Of a DNA stretch of 43,988 nt, positions 18,208 through 23,452 are shown piece by piece (position 1 is the first letter of the stretch; each line of letters starts with the position of its first letter). Source of the DNA: Actinomycetota bacterium (GTDB lineage: Bacteria > Actinomycetota > CADDZG01 > JAHWKV01 > JAOPZY01); contig JAOPZY010000162.1 of assembly GCA_025963875.1 (NCBI GenBank), positions 1 to 43,988 on the forward strand, in the 5' to 3' direction. The notes beneath the pieces were generated by a model. It was given only the letters and a program-made list of their open reading frames with translations. It ran no database searches and had not been told where the DNA came from. Made by a program: the position numbers and the translations under genes.

Positions 18208-19314
18208 ATGGCAGTCAAAACCACCTTCGACATCGGCGTCGAGGAGGAGTACTTCCTCATCGATCCCGTGACGCGTGCGCTGTCGCCCGCTGTCGATCGG
18301 GTGCTTCCCCGGGCAAGGGACCTCGCCGGAGACTCGGTAGCGACGGAGATGCAGCAGGTGCAGATCGAGATCGGCACCGACGTCTGCGGGACCCTCCGTG
18401 AGGTGCGAGCGGAGCTGGTCCGGCTCCGGGCCGCCGTGGTGAGCGCCGCGGAGTCTGCGGGCACGGTGATCGCCGCCTCGGGCACGCATCCGTTCTCGGA
18501 CTGGCGGGCCAGCGACCTCACGCAGAAGGAGTCCTACCTCCGCCTCGGCCGCGACTACGGCCAGATCGCCCGGGAACAGCTCGTGTGTGGCTGCCACGTC
18601 CACGTCGGCATGCCCGGGCGGGATGAAACCATCGAGATCCTGAACCGGGCCAAGCCGTGGCTCTCGCCGATCCGGGCCCTTGCCGTCAACTCGCCGTTCT
18701 GGGCCGGTTCCGATACAGGGTACGCCAGCTACCGCAGCGCGGTGTGGCTGCGGTGGCCGATGGCCGGCACGCCGGATGCGTTTGCCTCCTGGGAGGACTA
18801 CGAGGACCTCGTGCGGACCCTCGAGGACACCGGGAGCATCGACGAGCCGGCCCGCATCTACTGGGACATCCGGCCCTCTGCGAAGTTCCAGACGCTGGAA
18901 TTCCGGGTGACCGACGTCTGCATGACGGTGGACGAAACCGTCATGGTGGCCGGGCTCATCCGTGCCCTTGCCCGAGCCTGTCACCTCGATGCCCTCAGGG
19001 GCACGCCGCCGCCGTCCGTCAGGCCGGAGCTGATGCAGGCTGCCACCTGGCGTGCCTCCCGCTACGGCCTCGACGGCGATCTCGTCGACGTCATCGAGCG
19101 GCGGTCCATGCCGGCAGGGAAGATGGTCGCCGCCCTCCTGGACTTCGTCGGCCCGGCCCTCGACGAGTTCGGCGAGCGGGACGAGGTGGCCAGCCTGGTC
19201 GAGGCAACGCTGCGTGACGGCACGGGGGCCGCCCGTCAGCGAAGGTCGTTCGCCCGGGCCGGGCGCCCGGAGGACGTCGTCGACTACCTGGTGGCGCAGA
19301 CCGCCGGCGCGTAG
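18208..19314 (+). CDS. YbdK family carboxylate-amine ligase (glutamate--cysteine ligase 2)
   Basis: IGVEEEYFLID, SGTHPF, GCHVHVG, NSPFW, WDIRPS..TLEFRVTD. Confidence 0.93.
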   Translation: MAVKTTFDIGVEEEYFLIDPVTRALSPAVDRVLPRARDLAGDSVATEMQQVQIEIGTDVCGTLREVRAELVRLRAAVVSAAESAGTVIAASGTHPFSDWRASDLTQKESYLRLGRDYGQIAREQLVCGCHVHVGMPGRDETIEILNRAKPWLSPIRALAVNSPFWAGSDTGYASYRSAVWLRWPMAGTPDAFASWEDYEDLVRTLEDTGSIDEPARIYWDIRPSAKFQTLEFRVTDVCMTVDETVMVAGLIRALARACHLDALRGTPPPSVRPELMQAATWRASRYGLDGDLVDVIERRSMPAGKMVAALLDFVGPALDEFGERDEVASLVEATLRDGTGAARQRRSFARAGRPEDVVDYLVAQTAGA

Positions 19315-19372: not shown

Positions 19373-21769
19373 TCACCCAGCCCCCGAGGACTCCAGCACC
19401 AGCACCTCCAATTCCGCGGCCGGAACGGGACGCCCCACGAAGTAGCCCTGCGCCCGGTCGCAGCCGTTGGCACGGAGGAAGGAGAGCTGCTCCACGTTCT
19501 CCACTCCCTCGGCGACCACCTGCAGGTTCAGGCTGTGCGCCATCGCGATGATCGCGAGCACCATGGGGGCCTCGGGCGAGGCGCCGCCGATCGGATCGAT
19601 GAAGGACTTGTCGATCTTCAGCACGTCGATGGGGAAGGTGCCGAGGCGCGCCAGGGTGGAGTGGCCGGTCCCGAAGTCGTCGATGGCCACGCAGACCCCG
19701 TGGTCGCGGAGCTCCTGCAGGACGAGGCGGGTCGCCGGTCCGTCCTGGACCGCCACGCTCTCCGTCACCTCCAGCTCGAGCTGCGAGGCGGGGACCTCGT
19801 GCGCGTCGATCGTCGCGAGGATGCTGGCGGCCAGCCCGTGGGCGCCGAGCTCGGCGCCGGAGAGGTTGATGGCGATGCGCAGGGCCGGGAAGCCGGCGCT
19901 CCGCCAGGCCTGGGCCTTTTCACACGCCGTGCGCAGCACCCACCGGTCGATGAGCCGGATGAGCCCGAGGTCCTCGGCAAGGGGGATGAACCGGCCGGGG
20001 GTCAGGAGCCCCTGCGTGGGGTGCTGCCACCGCACGAGCGCCTCGGCACCGACCACCACCCCCGTGGTCAGGTCGATCTGCGGTTGGTACATCAGCCGGA
20101 ACTCGTCCCCCTCGAGCGCGGCCCGCAGGTCCGCCTCCAGGCTCACCCTTGCATCGGTGAGGGCGCTCATGCTCGTGGTGTAGAGGCGCCAGGTCCCGCG
20201 GCCGCGGATCTTCGCCTCGTAGAGGGCCAGGTCGCTCTTCTGGAGCAGGCTGCCGTACTGCGTTGCGTGGTCCGGGTACAGGGCGATGCCCACGCTGGCG
20301 GTGCAGAACACCCGCTGGCCGGCCACGTGGAAGGGTTCGCGGAAGGCATCGACGAGCTTCTGGCCCACCCCGGCCGCGTCGTCCGGCGAACGGACGGTCG
20401 GCAGGAGGAGCACGAACTCGTCGCCGCTCATGCGGGCGACGGTGTCGCTGGCCCGGGTCGCTTGACTGAGGCGCAGGGCGGCGGCCTTGAGTACCTCGTT
20501 GCCGGCGGCGTGGCCCAGGCTGTCGTTGATGCGCTTGAACGTGTCGAGGTCCAGGTAGGCGATGGCTGCCCGCGAGCCGATGCGCCCCGCCTGGGAGATG
20601 GTATGCGTCACCCGGTCCTCGAAGAGGACCTGGTTGGGGAGCCCGGTCAGCGCGTCGAACAGGGTCTGGCGCTTGATCTCCTCGAACAGGCGGACCTTCT
20701 CGACGGTGGTCGCCGCCACCTCGGCGAGGGTCCCCGCCAGCTGGCGGTCCCGGTCCGTCCAAGCACGCTGGCCGCGCGCCCGGACGACGTCGAGGACGAC
20801 GTCCGGGCCGACGCTGGTGCGCAGAGCGCCGCCGGCGGCGACGGTCGTCGGATGGCCGAGGGCTGCGGTCTGGGCCTCGAGGAGGTGGACCGAGGCGCTC
20901 CGGAACCGCTCGAGGATGTCGGCGACGTCGTTGCCCGACCGCACGGAGGTCGAGGCCGCGAACAGATCCTCGGCCCGGCGCCGTTCCCGCCGCTGACCCG
21001 AGGCACTGGAGTACCCGGCCTGCAGGGCGACGATCGGCGCCACGGTGATGAGCACCGCCCACGCCGAGCGCGTGACGGCCAGGAACACCATGATCCCGAA
21101 GGAGATCGAGCCTCCCCACGTCGCCGCCCGGAGCCCCGCCCCCCTGAAGAGGGCGAGCCGCAGCGGTTGCCGCCGGACCAGGGCGATGATGCCGGCGACG
21201 GCGAGCGACGAGGCGACCGCATAAGCGAGCCCGCCGGCCGCGGCTGCGGCGATGGTCCGCGGCGATCCGCCGGGCGCGCCGGCGCGCACCGCTTGGAACA
21301 CCACCAGGCCCACCGCGGCGGACACCAGGGCCTGGCCAACGTTGAACACGGCCTTGAGCGGCGGTGACCGCTTGAACACCTGGCCCGCGGCGATGCTGAC
21401 CCCGAGCGCCAGGATGGTCTCGAAGGGGGTGAGCAGCATGGCCATCGGAACGAAGAAGGCCTCGTCGAGGGCCAGGTCCTCGCCCTCGTCGTCGTGCGCG
21501 AGCCGGACCGGGATGATCTGCAGAATCGCCAGCTCCACGCAGAAGAACGCGAAAAGCTCGACTCGGTGCCAGAGCCCGGAGCGGGCGAGGGCGGCGCTGG
21601 CGCCGAGCGCGAGGGCACCCGCAGTCGCGGCCGTCAGGCATCCGAGGGTGACGCGTTCGCGCCACCAGGGGGCGGGGCGTTGGGGGCGACCGGGGCCGTG
21701 CCGGGTCGCATGCCCGTCGATTCGCTGCCCGCCGCTTTGTCTGTTGCCGTTTCGCCCGTTGCGGCTCAT
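19373..21769 (-). CDS. Membrane-bound GGDEF-EAL bifunctional diguanylate cyclase/phosphodiesterase
   Basis: Multi-TM N-terminus, degenerate GAF-like linker, DALTGLPN, RASD I-site, SGDEF, EALVRW, DDFGTG, AEGVE, QGY. Confidence 0.93.
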   Translation of the reverse strand: MSRNGRNGNRQSGGQRIDGHATRHGPGRPQRPAPWWRERVTLGCLTAATAGALALGASAALARSGLWHRVELFAFFCVELAILQIIPVRLAHDDEGEDLALDEAFFVPMAMLLTPFETILALGVSIAAGQVFKRSPPLKAVFNVGQALVSAAVGLVVFQAVRAGAPGGSPRTIAAAAAGGLAYAVASSLAVAGIIALVRRQPLRLALFRGAGLRAATWGGSISFGIMVFLAVTRSAWAVLITVAPIVALQAGYSSASGQRRERRRAEDLFAASTSVRSGNDVADILERFRSASVHLLEAQTAALGHPTTVAAGGALRTSVGPDVVLDVVRARGQRAWTDRDRQLAGTLAEVAATTVEKVRLFEEIKRQTLFDALTGLPNQVLFEDRVTHTISQAGRIGSRAAIAYLDLDTFKRINDSLGHAAGNEVLKAAALRLSQATRASDTVARMSGDEFVLLLPTVRSPDDAAGVGQKLVDAFREPFHVAGQRVFCTASVGIALYPDHATQYGSLLQKSDLALYEAKIRGRGTWRLYTTSMSALTDARVSLEADLRAALEGDEFRLMYQPQIDLTTGVVVGAEALVRWQHPTQGLLTPGRFIPLAEDLGLIRLIDRWVLRTACEKAQAWRSAGFPALRIAINLSGAELGAHGLAASILATIDAHEVPASQLELEVTESVAVQDGPATRLVLQELRDHGVCVAIDDFGTGHSTLARLGTFPIDVLKIDKSFIDPIGGASPEAPMVLAIIAMAHSLNLQVVAEGVENVEQLSFLRANGCDRAQGYFVGRPVPAAELEVLVLESSGAG

Positions 21770-21860
21770 GCTCCCGTCCCTGCTTCAGGGTCGGCTTCCA
21801 GCCGTGGGAGCTGGGGTTCGATGGGGCTCCGCCGCCTCGGTTACCGCAGCCGGCGGGCTG

Positions 21861-22001
21861 CTAGCGCCATGTGCTCCCCAGCGGCCGAGCGGTCGTGGCT
21901 CCGACGCCCTGCGATGCAAACTTCGCAACCCCTCCAGCCATCGTAAACGCAAAAACGCTGACAACGGTTATTCCCAGCGCCAACCGGCGGAACAGTGCCA
22001 T
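21861..22001 (-). CDS. Unannotated 46-aa putative secreted peptide MALFRRLALGITVVSVFAFTMAGGVAKFASQGVGATTARPLGSTWR
   Basis: GAGAGGGTG RBS shortly before the ATG; basic N-terminus plus hydrophobic stretch; lies between the riboswitch and the GGDEF-EAL gene. Below the size cutoff of the ORF track. Confidence 0.65.
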   Translation of the reverse strand: MALFRRLALGITVVSVFAFTMAGGVAKFASQGVGATTARPLGSTWR

Positions 22002-22044
22002 ACGAATCACCCTCTCGTGTCGGGCGTCTCGCAGGCGAGGTATT

Positions 22045-22136
22045 TGCCGATTCGGTAGCTGGCTGCCCGGGATCGCTCCTTGGGGCCCTCTAGCGTTGCG
22101 TCACCGGGTTTCCCCGGTTTTGCCTTTGTCGTCGGC
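22045..22136 (-). ncRNA. Cyclic di-GMP-I (GEMM-I) riboswitch
   Basis: Minus strand reads AAAGGCAAA-ACCGGG-GAAA-CCCGGT-GACGCAAC-GCTAGAGGG..GGA-GCGA-TCC..AGCCAGC-TACCGAA, with flanking GCCGA/TCGGC pairing. Confidence 0.88.
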
Positions 22137-22294
22137 GAAACGCTTTGTGTGGCTGCTCAATAGATCGACCCCCCAGGGGTAGAAGTTGAGGCAAAGCATC
22201 CGTTTGCATGTGGCTCCCCATGTGTCCCCTTATGTATCCCCCGGAACGGCCACCATCCAAGCCCGGCGCGTACCCGCTGGGTATCGTTGCGGGA

Positions 22295-23452
22295 GTGAAC
22301 ATCGATTTCCACGCATCCGAGCGATCCAGCCTGGGGATCGAGATGGAGTTGGAGATCATCGACCGCGCGAGCCGCCAGCTGACCAGTGCCGCCTCCGAGA
22401 TCCTCGCCGCCATGGCCGACAGCCGCGGGGGCGAGGACCCTCGCAAGGCCAAACACGAGCTGATGGAGAACACGATCGAAATCAACACCGATGTCTGCGC
22501 GACGGTGGCAGAGGCAAGGGCGGACCTCCAGGCGAGTATTGCTGACATCACCACGCACACCGAGCCGCGCGGCCTCGCGCTCATGTGCTCGGGCACCCAT
22601 CCGTTCTCCCACTGGGTGCACCAGAAGATCACCCCCAACCCACGCTACGAGCGGCTCGTCGAGCAGATGCAGTGGCCGGCCCGCCAGCTCCTGATCTTCG
22701 GTATCCACGTGCACGTGGGAGTGCGTTCCGCTGAGAAAGCCATCGCCATCTCCAATGCCCTGACCGCATACATCCCGCACTTCCTCGCTCTGTCCGCCTC
22801 AAGCCCGTTCTGGCTGGGTCAGGACACGGGCCTTGCATCGAGCCGCTCGAAGATCTTCGAGCATCTCCCGACCGCCGGGATCCCCTACCAGCTCAGCGGC
22901 TGGAGCGAGTTCGAGGAGTTCATGACCACCCTGGTGGCGGCCCGCTCCATCGAGACCATCCGCGAGGTGTGGTGGGATGTGCGGCCCCACCCGGACTTCG
23001 GTACCGTGGAGCTGCGGATCTGCGACGGCTTGCCGACGCTGAGCGAGGTGGCTGCCATCGGGGCACTCAGCCAGTGCCTCGTCGAGTGGATGGACAACCT
23101 GTGCGACCGCGGCTTCGCCCTTCCCCACCCCCGGCAGTGGATCATCCGCGAGAACAAATGGCGCGCCGCGCGCTACGGCGTCGACGCGCAGATCATCGTG
23201 GACGAGGGCGGCGGGCTCGTGCCCGTCCGGCGGGCCGTCGAGGACCTTGTCGAGGAGCTCGGTCCGATCGCCTCGCGGCTGGCGTGCGTGGACGAGCTGC
23301 ACTTCGTCCTGGACATCCTCAAGACCGGGCCCTCGTACGTGCGGCAGCGGGCGATGGCGAACGAAACCGGCAACCTGCAGGGCGTCGTGGACGCCCTCGT
23401 CACGGAACTCGAGACCGACACCCCGCTCCTCGGCGGCGGGCTCGATCCCTGA
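22295..23452 (+). CDS. YbdK family glutamate--cysteine ligase (second paralog)
   Basis: SLGIEMEL, SGTHPF, FGIHVHVG, SSPFW, WWDVRPHPDFGTVELRICD; probable GTG start 7 nt after TATCGT. Confidence 0.93.
   Translation: MNIDFHASERSSLGIEMELEIIDRASRQLTSAASEILAAMADSRGGEDPRKAKHELMENTIEINTDVCATVAEARADLQASIADITTHTEPRGLALMCSGTHPFSHWVHQKITPNPRYERLVEQMQWPARQLLIFGIHVHVGVRSAEKAIAISNALTAYIPHFLALSASSPFWLGQDTGLASSRSKIFEHLPTAGIPYQLSGWSEFEEFMTTLVAARSIETIREVWWDVRPHPDFGTVELRICDGLPTLSEVAAIGALSQCLVEWMDNLCDRGFALPHPRQWIIRENKWRAARYGVDAQIIVDEGGGLVPVRRAVEDLVEELGPIASRLACVDELHFVLDILKTGPSYVRQRAMANETGNLQGVVDALVTELETDTPLLGGGLDP

Follow-up and report, generated by a model that had tools for sequence, protein, structure and literature searches.

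A gene for a small peptide lies on the minus strand of contig JAOPZY010000162.1 (GenBank assembly GCA_025963875.1) from an uncultured bacterium of the phylum Actinomycetota. The whole contig of 43,988 nucleotides (nt), termed the window, was analyzed. The gene encodes 46 amino acids and is found between a GEMM-I riboswitch, the class that binds cyclic di-GMP (c-di-GMP), and a gene for a membrane-bound GGDEF-EAL protein. The reading that we favor, with a probability of roughly 0.55, is that the riboswitch controls a unit of both genes, and that the peptide is a partner of the enzyme's sensor domain that closes a c-di-GMP loop. The peptide would be a protease-free version, reduced to one unit, of the tryptophan (Trp)-rich tails carried by proteases that are encoded beside related sensors. 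The features of this unit are listed below in the direction of transcription. Comparisons are mostly between the genome of the window (G000) and that of a sister species (G002).

22132 to 22143, minus strand: 5' arm of the aptamer-enclosing helix (GCGUUUC plus GCCGA), complementary to 22046 to 22050 and 22024 to 22030.
22051 to 22134, minus strand: GEMM-I (c-di-GMP-I) aptamer, RF01051, 56.4 bits.
22002 to 22050, minus strand: expression platform, with the 3' arms of the enclosing helix (22046 to 22050 and 22024 to 22030) and the sequestor hairpin.
21861 to 22001, minus strand: gene for the 46-amino-acid peptide, with a basic N-terminus, a hydrophobic core, GGVA-x-FA, a variable stretch of 12 residues and a C-terminal G-S-T-W-R.
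21770 to 21860, minus strand: spacer of 91 nt holding the ribosome-binding site of the enzyme gene (AGGGA/GGGAG); poorly conserved between G000 and G002, with insertions or deletions (indels).
20960 to 21667, minus strand: MASE9-like membrane sensor domain, approximately residues 35 to 270 of the enzyme.
20195 to 20662, minus strand: GGDEF domain (PF00990, E 4.5e-44, residues 370 to 525), SGDEF variant.
19427 to 20134, minus strand: EAL domain (PF00563, E 1.6e-76, residues 546 to 781), with EAL, DDFGTG, EGVE and KIDKSF motifs.

The Rfam covariance model for GEMM-I riboswitches (RF01051) matches 22051 to 22134 over its full length (model positions 1 to 87) with a score of 56.4 bits (E 1.6e-08), and its curated gathering score is 35 bits. 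Model position 11, a conserved unpaired G that precedes a GC pair, aligns with the G at 22124; we take this position to be the equivalent of G20 in the Vc2 riboswitch. As described in the relevant part of the cited work, G20 of Vc2 pairs with one guanine (G-alpha) of c-di-GMP, and an A is found instead in variants that sense cyclic GMP-AMP (PMC6140456). An earlier note on this DNA, made from the sequence alone, had predicted both a GEMM-I riboswitch on the minus strand and a G at this site. The first prediction is confirmed by the covariance model, and the second agrees with the alignment, given the position mapping that we assume. The sister species carries the same riboswitch (57.3 bits), likewise followed by an open reading frame (ORF) of 46 codons. 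The 5' arm of the enclosing helix is invariant between the two species, and the stretch from the aptamer to the Shine-Dalgarno sequence is nearly identical. GEMM-I riboswitches are present in 53 of 61 genomes of the class, and the genome of the window has four copies.

The ATG of the peptide gene is at 22001, 49 nt 3' of the aptamer, and GAGAGGG is found 8 nt before it. The ORF extends to a stop codon at 21861 to 21863 and encodes MALFRRLALGITVVSVFAFTMAGGVAKFASQGVGATTARPLGSTWR; an ORF listing gives the same frame from an upstream GTG as 49 amino acids. The ribosome-binding site, the 46-codon ORF, the 91-nt gap and the membrane SGDEF-EAL gene that follows it are all present where the earlier note had placed them.

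The ORF of the sister species, which we call a-type together with that of the window, also encodes 46 amino acids, 67% of which are identical. The two ORFs align without gaps; the leader has gaps of 5 and 4 nt, and the spacer aligns poorly. Differences at codon positions 1, 2 and 3 number 8, 9 and 19, and the differing codons comprise 12 synonymous and 15 nonsynonymous changes. By the NG86 method, nonsynonymous divergence (dN) is 0.225 and synonymous divergence (dS) is 0.658, for a dN/dS ratio of 0.34. A profile built from four family members was searched with hmmsearch against 1.84 billion representative proteins, and recovered exactly three clusters, all of 45 to 46 amino acids. In an alignment of 13 sequences, M1, R5, L9, G10, F17, T20, G24, A26, F28, A29, G42 and S43 are invariant. 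W45 is present in 12 of the 13, as many end in G-S-x-W-x, and positions 30 to 41 are variable. Within the putative mature region, conservation is highest at the Trp-bearing end. Among a-type loci other than that of the window, riboswitch and ORF are found together in all six. Homologues of this type are annotated as "hypothetical protein" in JGI gene calls, and neither Pfam nor NCBIfam has a family for the peptide. Judged by this pattern of substitution, the 46-codon ORF is a real, conserved coding gene. The earlier note had staked its proposal on conservation of the ORF, and the dN/dS ratio, the three clusters and the fixed length of 45 to 46 amino acids bear it out on this point.

Contigs from three RNA libraries of three studies overlap the ORF, at 21847 to 22081 (X19), 21806 to 21944 and 21921 to 22081 (X20), and 21767 to 21901 (X18). 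The last of these is 166 nt long and spans the spacer. Together they contain no indels in the ORF and two in the spacer.

Read by eye, the peptide has the layout of a signal peptide, in which MALFRR is followed by LALGITVVSVFAFTMAGG and then by V-A, with A-F-A in a second, b-type form of the peptide described below. From this layout, the peptide is predicted to be exported via the Sec pathway and cleaved. A Tat signal, suggested by the RR pair, was considered and set aside, as the core is strongly hydrophobic and one family member (P0004) has a single R.

The leader can form two structures that would give opposite access to the ribosome. In the ligand-free minimum-free-energy fold of the window RNA (-64.7 kcal/mol), a sequestor hairpin pairs 22022 to 22032 with 22002 to 22012 and covers the Shine-Dalgarno sequence GAGAGGGUG (22008 to 22016). 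In both species GCGAGACGCCC pairs in this fold with a segment that starts at the Shine-Dalgarno G's and ends immediately 5' of the AUG, and the probability that these G's are unpaired is approximately zero in both minimum-energy folds. Alternatively, GAGACGC pairs with GCGUUUC just 5' of the aptamer, and this helix stacks on the GCCGA/UCGGC helix that closes the aptamer. With the enclosing helix imposed as a constraint, the free energy is -54.8 kcal/mol and the Shine-Dalgarno sequence is accessible. GAGACGC cannot take part in both pairings at once. At the three sites of the 3' arm where G000 and G002 differ, pairing is kept or improved, by changes from G-C to G-U and from an A-A mismatch to A-U, and the variants seen among RNA-library contigs map to loops. 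The minus strand was free of terminator-like sites from the aptamer through the whole enzyme gene, and no promoter was detected by a consensus scan, which includes no model of actinobacterial promoters. The predicted structures suggest that the riboswitch is probably a translational ON switch, by which c-di-GMP would raise synthesis of the peptide, and the enzyme gene is probably on the same transcript as the peptide gene. The aptamer resembles Vc2-type GEMM-I riboswitches (RF01051) in its full-length match above the cut-off and in the G at the position that reads G-alpha. It differs from them in its platform, which is a choice between a Shine-Dalgarno-sequestering hairpin and an aptamer-enclosing helix rather than a terminator, and in its first regulated gene, which encodes a peptide of 46 amino acids.

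The enzyme gene (19373 to 21769, minus strand) encodes 798 amino acids, of which the N-terminal 370 are hydrophobic and multi-helical. The canonical GG[DE]EF motif is replaced by SGDEF both here and in the sister species, and RxxD (RASD) is found five residues before it. Some SGDEF enzymes are active. The EAL domain appears intact, as judged by the established identity of catalytic EAL residues.

A sign that the peptide belongs with this enzyme comes from a second locus in the sister species. Contig C551 of G002 encodes another enzyme, 58% identical over residues 73 to 795, with GGDEF and EAL domains. Directly 5' of its gene is an ORF of 46 codons, the b-type form MTTLRRIVLGTSVLFALTMMTGNAFAMTSSNYPTVAPTAPNGSKWE, which has its own ribosome-binding site, ends in GSKWE and is 44% identical to the window peptide. 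This b-type locus (L036) has no riboswitch. Because the pair of peptide and enzyme is kept there without one, the pair is conserved independently of the riboswitch, which argues against a mere leader ORF. By this comparison, in which peptide and enzyme both have paralogues that are likewise paired in the sister species, the peptide is tied to the adjacent enzyme.

In the lineage of the sister species (L006, L096, L097, L098 and L100), indels of one base interrupt the a-type GGDEF-EAL gene in GC-rich runs near residues 180, 378 and 517. At each of these three sites the frame is shifted in certain assemblies only; L096 has an in-frame stop as well. The five loci do not differ in the riboswitch or in the small ORF. 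Pseudogenization of the enzyme in this lineage was considered and set aside, because the indels are not the same in four assemblies that are nearly identical in sequence, and because they fall in GC runs.

The sensor domain is homologous to domains in 36 of 61 related genomes, and a profile of 29 such domains has matches in 180 of 401 sampled Actinomycetota genomes. Histidine kinases at two of these loci (L101 and L105) pass the Pfam MASE9 model (PF20972, gathering score 24.3 bits) at 30.7 and 30.9 bits, and the L101 kinase (G050:C78) matches the window domain with an E-value of 2.2e-9. We call the window domain MASE9-like because it is homologous to proteins that pass this model and its own score is below the cut-off. 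Among 28 homologues scanned for output domains, 22 have a histidine-kinase ATPase, five have GGDEF-EAL and one has GGDEF alone. HisKA is also listed for 21 of the 22 kinases at an E-value threshold of 1e-05, and PAS, GAF or HAMP domains precede these kinase domains.

S-components of transporters of the energy-coupling factor (ECF) type are membrane proteins of small size whose outer face binds vitamins or metal ions. An AlphaFold2 model of the sensor domain, built on an alignment of 29 rows, has a mean predicted local distance difference test (pLDDT) score of 90.5 and a predicted template modeling (pTM) score of 0.84. A structural scan of 48,161 chains with VIA-align placed ECF S-components in all of the top 14 positions (Z 11.1 to 15.5), and the next match has a Z of 8.1. 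The best matches are the NikM-type chain 4m5c_A (Z 15.5, 191 residues aligned, root-mean-square deviation 3.3) and CbiM (13.5), followed by RibU, FolT, BioY, ThiT and PanT (11.1 to 13.1). Foldseek also ranks this family first, although weakly (best E 0.014, TmRibU). The modeled sensor domain thus has the fold of an ECF S-component, a statement about fold only and about neither function nor transport. An outward-open ligand pocket of this kind would fit a short exported tail as input. Residues 59 to 70 of the model (m9c8da286b6d8; approximately 88 to 99 of the protein, HDDEGEDLALDE) form an acidic beta-hairpin between helices 2 and 3, which may be the short re-entrant segment described for MASE9. 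All 29 domains share F113 and N114 (alignment numbering). The MASE9 preprint, in the part that bears on this point, proposes that ligands bind within the membrane (10.1101/2021.11.05.467447); it does not mention ECF. The S-component fold has been reported in 5TMR sensor kinases (Partipilo and Slotboom 2024, PMC11109136), in work whose relevant part concerns Pfam PF07694; the word MASE does not occur in it. The 5TMR-LYT kinases described there have the S-component fold in common with our domain, and likewise fuse it to PAS, GAF, kinase or GGDEF-EAL outputs. The domain studied here is distinguished from them by being MASE9-like, by an extra N-terminal helix and by its closest likeness to the NikM/CbiM type.

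Most genes for such sensors follow a long ORF that ends in five-residue units with one Trp each, for example GRGWA, ARRWA, WYGSS, GNSWS or ASTWK. At L101 and L105 this ORF encodes a secreted Peptidase_S8 protein, mycosin-like by NCBIfam at a score below that model's cut-off. We searched upstream of sensor genes, on the same strand, for an open window of 40 residues with at least four Trp residues spaced 5 or 10 apart. A repeat of this kind, with a period of five, precedes 22 of 29 sensor loci in the class and 29 of 40 in other classes of the phylum (51 of 69 in total). On the opposite strand it is found at 2 of the 69 loci, and in random stretches of the window genome 10 times in 2000. Seven class loci lack it: L036, which has the b-type peptide, L051, which is cut by the end of its contig, and five that have nothing in its place. 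The genomes of ten of the 29 class loci are unpublished; the 19 published ones include 15 with the repeat, besides the peptide locus and the one that is cut. The repeat accompanies kinase outputs as well as GGDEF-EAL or GGDEF outputs (L056, L057 and L064). Read from the listings, 18 of 19 large tails in the class end in W-x-stop.

The end of the peptide resembles one unit of these tails. A weight matrix from 49 tails, with proteins weighted equally, has G at 57%, S/T/A at 65%, S/T at 64%, W, and S at 52%, for a consensus of G-[STA]-[ST]-W-S. With this matrix we ranked the ends of all stop-to-stop ORFs of at least 40 amino acids in the window genome. The three peptide ends fall in the top 0.07 to 0.10% of 46,052 ORF ends, with GSTWR at rank 34, GSSWR at 32 and GSKWE at 44, and these ranks do not change when only the 1,225 ends whose penultimate residue is W are considered. 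A penultimate W is present in 1.6 to 2.7% of ORFs. Having a single W, the peptide lacks the four or more Trp residues at five-residue spacing that define the repeat. It does have a C-terminal G-[STA]-[ST]-W-x and is encoded directly 5' of a MASE9-like sensor on the same strand. No Trp-tailed S8 protease was found in the window genome, where the only tblastn match is a 35%-identical S8 protein on contig C199 whose tail is not reached.

Maximum-likelihood analysis of 29 domains groups the two peptide-linked sensors in one clade (support 100/99). Their sister group is L037 and L038 (96/95), both of which follow proteases with WYGSS tails. The tree leaves out L049, which has an internal stop, and its midpoint root is no more than a drawing aid; the genome of L038 is unpublished. 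The simplest reading of these comparisons is that the protease partner has been replaced by, or reduced to, a signal peptide and one tail unit. A functional link between the Trp tail and the MASE9-like membrane domain is supported by comparative genomics.

GEMM-I riboswitches also precede operons that encode a receiver, an S8 protease with a Trp tail and a MASE9-PAS-histidine kinase. These are present in G050 (L101, contig C78), G047 (L102, C277), G015 (L105, C48) and the unpublished G038 (L103, C19). The aptamer ends approximately 16 nt before the stand-alone receiver gene, and the tails are GRGWA, ARRWA or GRYWA. Riboswitch, receiver, protease and kinase make up a complete riboswitch-gated two-component unit. 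With GEMM-I before four such operons, the window is not alone in linking the riboswitch to this sensor unit. In the stretches available for 20 class and 40 phylum loci, GEMM-I was not found; these stretches end 100 to 400 nt before the protease gene, and a riboswitch farther 5' would have escaped the search. The window unit shares with the S8-protease units the sensor family, gene order, strand, export signal, C-terminal five-residue unit and sometimes GEMM-I. It differs from them in having no protease domain, a single unit rather than a run, an SGDEF-EAL output and a riboswitch immediately 5' of the partner gene, without an intervening receiver gene. Literature searches found no description of Trp-tailed proteases with sensors, the supplements of the MASE9 preprint and of PMC11109136 aside, and no riboswitch-controlled peptide beside GGDEF-EAL genes.

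At L040, L047 and L117, internal Trp repeats (GGTWT, GTSWT) are followed by an extra C-terminal segment with an EYDE-FLTAFWG motif, so that the tail does not end at the repeat. A second, distant MASE9-like match (E 8.3e-10) begins at position 11722 of contig C179 in the window genome, and the C-terminal part of its product looks kinase-like by eye. Neither a Trp-tailed ORF nor a W-x-stop peptide was found upstream of it.

In the mechanism that we propose, the hairpin would cover the Shine-Dalgarno sequence of the ligand-free leader. Binding of c-di-GMP would let the aptamer and its enclosing helix take over one arm of the hairpin, and the ribosome-binding site would thereby become free. The peptide would then enter the Sec pathway, and a cut after GGVA would leave approximately 20 residues (KFASQ...GSTWR), the predicted mature 20-mer being KFASQGVGATTARPLGSTWR. 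Alternatively, the peptide might stay anchored with its tail outside the cell. In either case the free G-S-T-W-R end would act from outside as the partner or ligand of the sensor domain and set the balance between making and breaking c-di-GMP. The riboswitch would read the resulting c-di-GMP, closing a feedback loop whose sign could be either. The sequence does not tell which, as an SGDEF domain and an EAL domain that looks intact are both present in the enzyme. A complex prediction from alignments of the membrane domain and the peptide gave a score of 0.01 and a mark of 0.32, with the fold of the partner uncertain, an outcome that weighs on neither side as regards binding. The earlier note had described the locus as a "quorum-like" module; this part of its proposal is not supported, and a tethered, self-acting peptide fits equally well.

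A bolder extension, which we regard as a long shot, is that the G-S-x-W-x end represents the natural ligand class of MASE9-like sensors. In most Actinomycetota, a secreted S8 protease would display many copies or cut them off its own tail, and in this genus the ligand would be reduced to a c-di-GMP-gated autoinducer of 20 residues, released only at high c-di-GMP. If so, the internal c-di-GMP state would be coupled to cell-to-cell signaling through a receptor with the fold of a vitamin transporter.

Several observations weigh against our interpretation. The sequestered form of the leader is favored over the enclosing-helix form by 9.9 kcal/mol, and an ON switch would therefore need the energy of ligand binding or folding during transcription. 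The helices are invariant and hence provide no two-sided covariation. The RNA-library contigs may derive from DNA and are at most a weak hint of transcription. The MASE9 model matches the window domain (residues 109 to 161) with only 14.1 bits (E 0.045), below the gathering score. W-x-stop ends only 15 of 28 tails elsewhere in the phylum, so a free W-x end is not universal, and one member of the peptide family (P0006, from a single contig) ends in GSEGE and lacks the W. The likeness between peptide and tails rests on five residues of one unit and was noticed after the fact. The frameshifts in the enzyme genes of the sister lineage may reflect assembly or population noise or decay, which leaves the integrity of the enzyme there ambiguous. 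Finally, the peptide family was found in only one genus and amounts to approximately three independent lineages, and the peptide was not found in G001, a genome of the same genus that is 98% complete.

The alternative that survives best, although we consider it improbable, is that the 46-amino-acid product is an uncleaved single-pass membrane protein that acts by helix contacts within the membrane in the manner of MgrB and PhoQ, with the Trp as an interfacial anchor. The hydrophobic core of approximately 20 residues is long for a Sec signal peptide and is conserved as well as the tail (F17, T20 and G24 are invariant). Moreover, binding within the membrane is what the MASE9 authors proposed, in the part of their preprint noted above (10.1101/2021.11.05.467447). 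However, signal-peptidase cleavage would suit the small-x-small sequences that end the core in every type of the peptide (GGVA and AFA), and G-S-x-W-x matches the unit of soluble secreted-protease tails that have no adjoining helix.

A little less probable is that the peptide, a matrix, surface or antimicrobial component for example, is secreted as a c-di-GMP regulon product in its own right and shares the transcript for reasons of operon economy. The regulon does include exported proteins, since two other GEMM-I riboswitches in the genome precede secreted CAP-domain proteins. Such a product would not be expected to have a tail that matches a motif tied to the sensor domain in 51 of 69 loci, nor would both peptide types be expected directly before paralogous MASE9-like enzymes.

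The ORF might also serve only as a leader, whose riboswitch-gated translation protects the transcript or prevents Rho termination, with a functionless peptide. Its location between riboswitch and enzyme gene, the action of the platform on its ribosome-binding site and the lack of a terminator would all suit this role. We nevertheless consider it unlikely, as amino acids are under purifying selection (dN/dS 0.34), the length is fixed at 45 to 46 amino acids, the tail is conserved, and a paralogous peptide is kept before a paralogous enzyme that has no riboswitch. That the ORF is untranslated and its conservation reflects the RNA structure of a long leader is very improbable, for although translation in this uncultured organism is predicted from the sequence, differences favor the third codon position, the 141 nt have no indels while both flanks do, the frame is open in all 13 sequences and a ribosome-binding site is present at a- and b-type loci.

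Small exported regulators encoded beside membrane sensors have precedents. In the YfiBNR system, the small periplasmic protein YfiR is encoded beside the membrane cyclase YfiN (TpbB) and reportedly regulates it directly. DbfQ, in the portion of the work that describes it, is likewise a small periplasmic protein encoded beside DbfS, the membrane sensor that it regulates directly (PMC12714742). The window locus resembles both systems in pairing a small exported product with the adjacent membrane sensor that it would control, and the output of YfiN is c-di-GMP synthesis. YfiR and DbfQ are folded proteins that bind periplasmic domains; by contrast, the partner proposed here has approximately 20 residues after predicted cleavage and no homology to them, and its sensor, unlike YfiN or DbfS, is almost devoid of a periplasmic domain and has an S-component-like membrane fold. 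The pairs AgrD-AgrC and ComX-ComP involve peptide autoinducers of Gram-positive bacteria, and the PDZ domain of DegS senses the C-terminal YxF of outer-membrane proteins. As in these cases, a short exported peptide or free aromatic C-terminus would be read by a membrane-associated sensor, and as in the first two the peptide gene is adjacent to that of the receptor. Unlike the Agr and ComX systems, the window locus has no AgrB- or ComQ-like enzyme nearby, an unrelated receptor, c-di-GMP turnover as output and gating by a riboswitch, and diffusible signaling is hypothetical here.

MASE9-type domains head hundreds of kinases and c-di-GMP enzymes. Their usual protease partner is hard to test, as protease, tail and sensor are entangled, whereas the partner here has approximately 20 residues and can be synthesized. 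If the peptide alters c-di-GMP turnover, the input of the whole sensor family would be identified, together with a riboswitch that gates the ligand of a sensor. If it has no effect, the locus is still a clean translational c-di-GMP riboswitch before a c-di-GMP enzyme.

A search with the single protein in 61 relatives matched only the sister species, and a profile search of 113 genomes of the class matched only G000 and G002, plus four weak matches inside long ORFs. A scan of genome contigs added one other species, and a metagenome scan yielded five loci, all a-type. The locus is found in soil metagenomes of 14 studies, one of which is possibly the source of this DNA.

The riboswitch unit is flanked in the window by two paralogous genes for carboxylate-amine ligases of the GCS2 family (18208 to 19314 and 22208 to 23452, both plus strand), and the same GCS2 gene is upstream of the riboswitch in G002 (L006). 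The neighbors in the window also include PAC2 and MscS-like channel genes; no enzyme for peptide maturation was recognized among them. The fourth GEMM-I riboswitch of the genome (C215:8523-8598, L003; 56.8 bits) is 66 nt from a contig end, and the gene that it regulates is not assembled. The other two, on contig C126 (L001 and L002; 425 to 512 and 1501 to 1587 of L001), score 58.0 and 59.1 bits. Each precedes a gene for a secreted CAP/SCP-domain protein with a Pro/Ala-rich tail, and these genes are in tandem.

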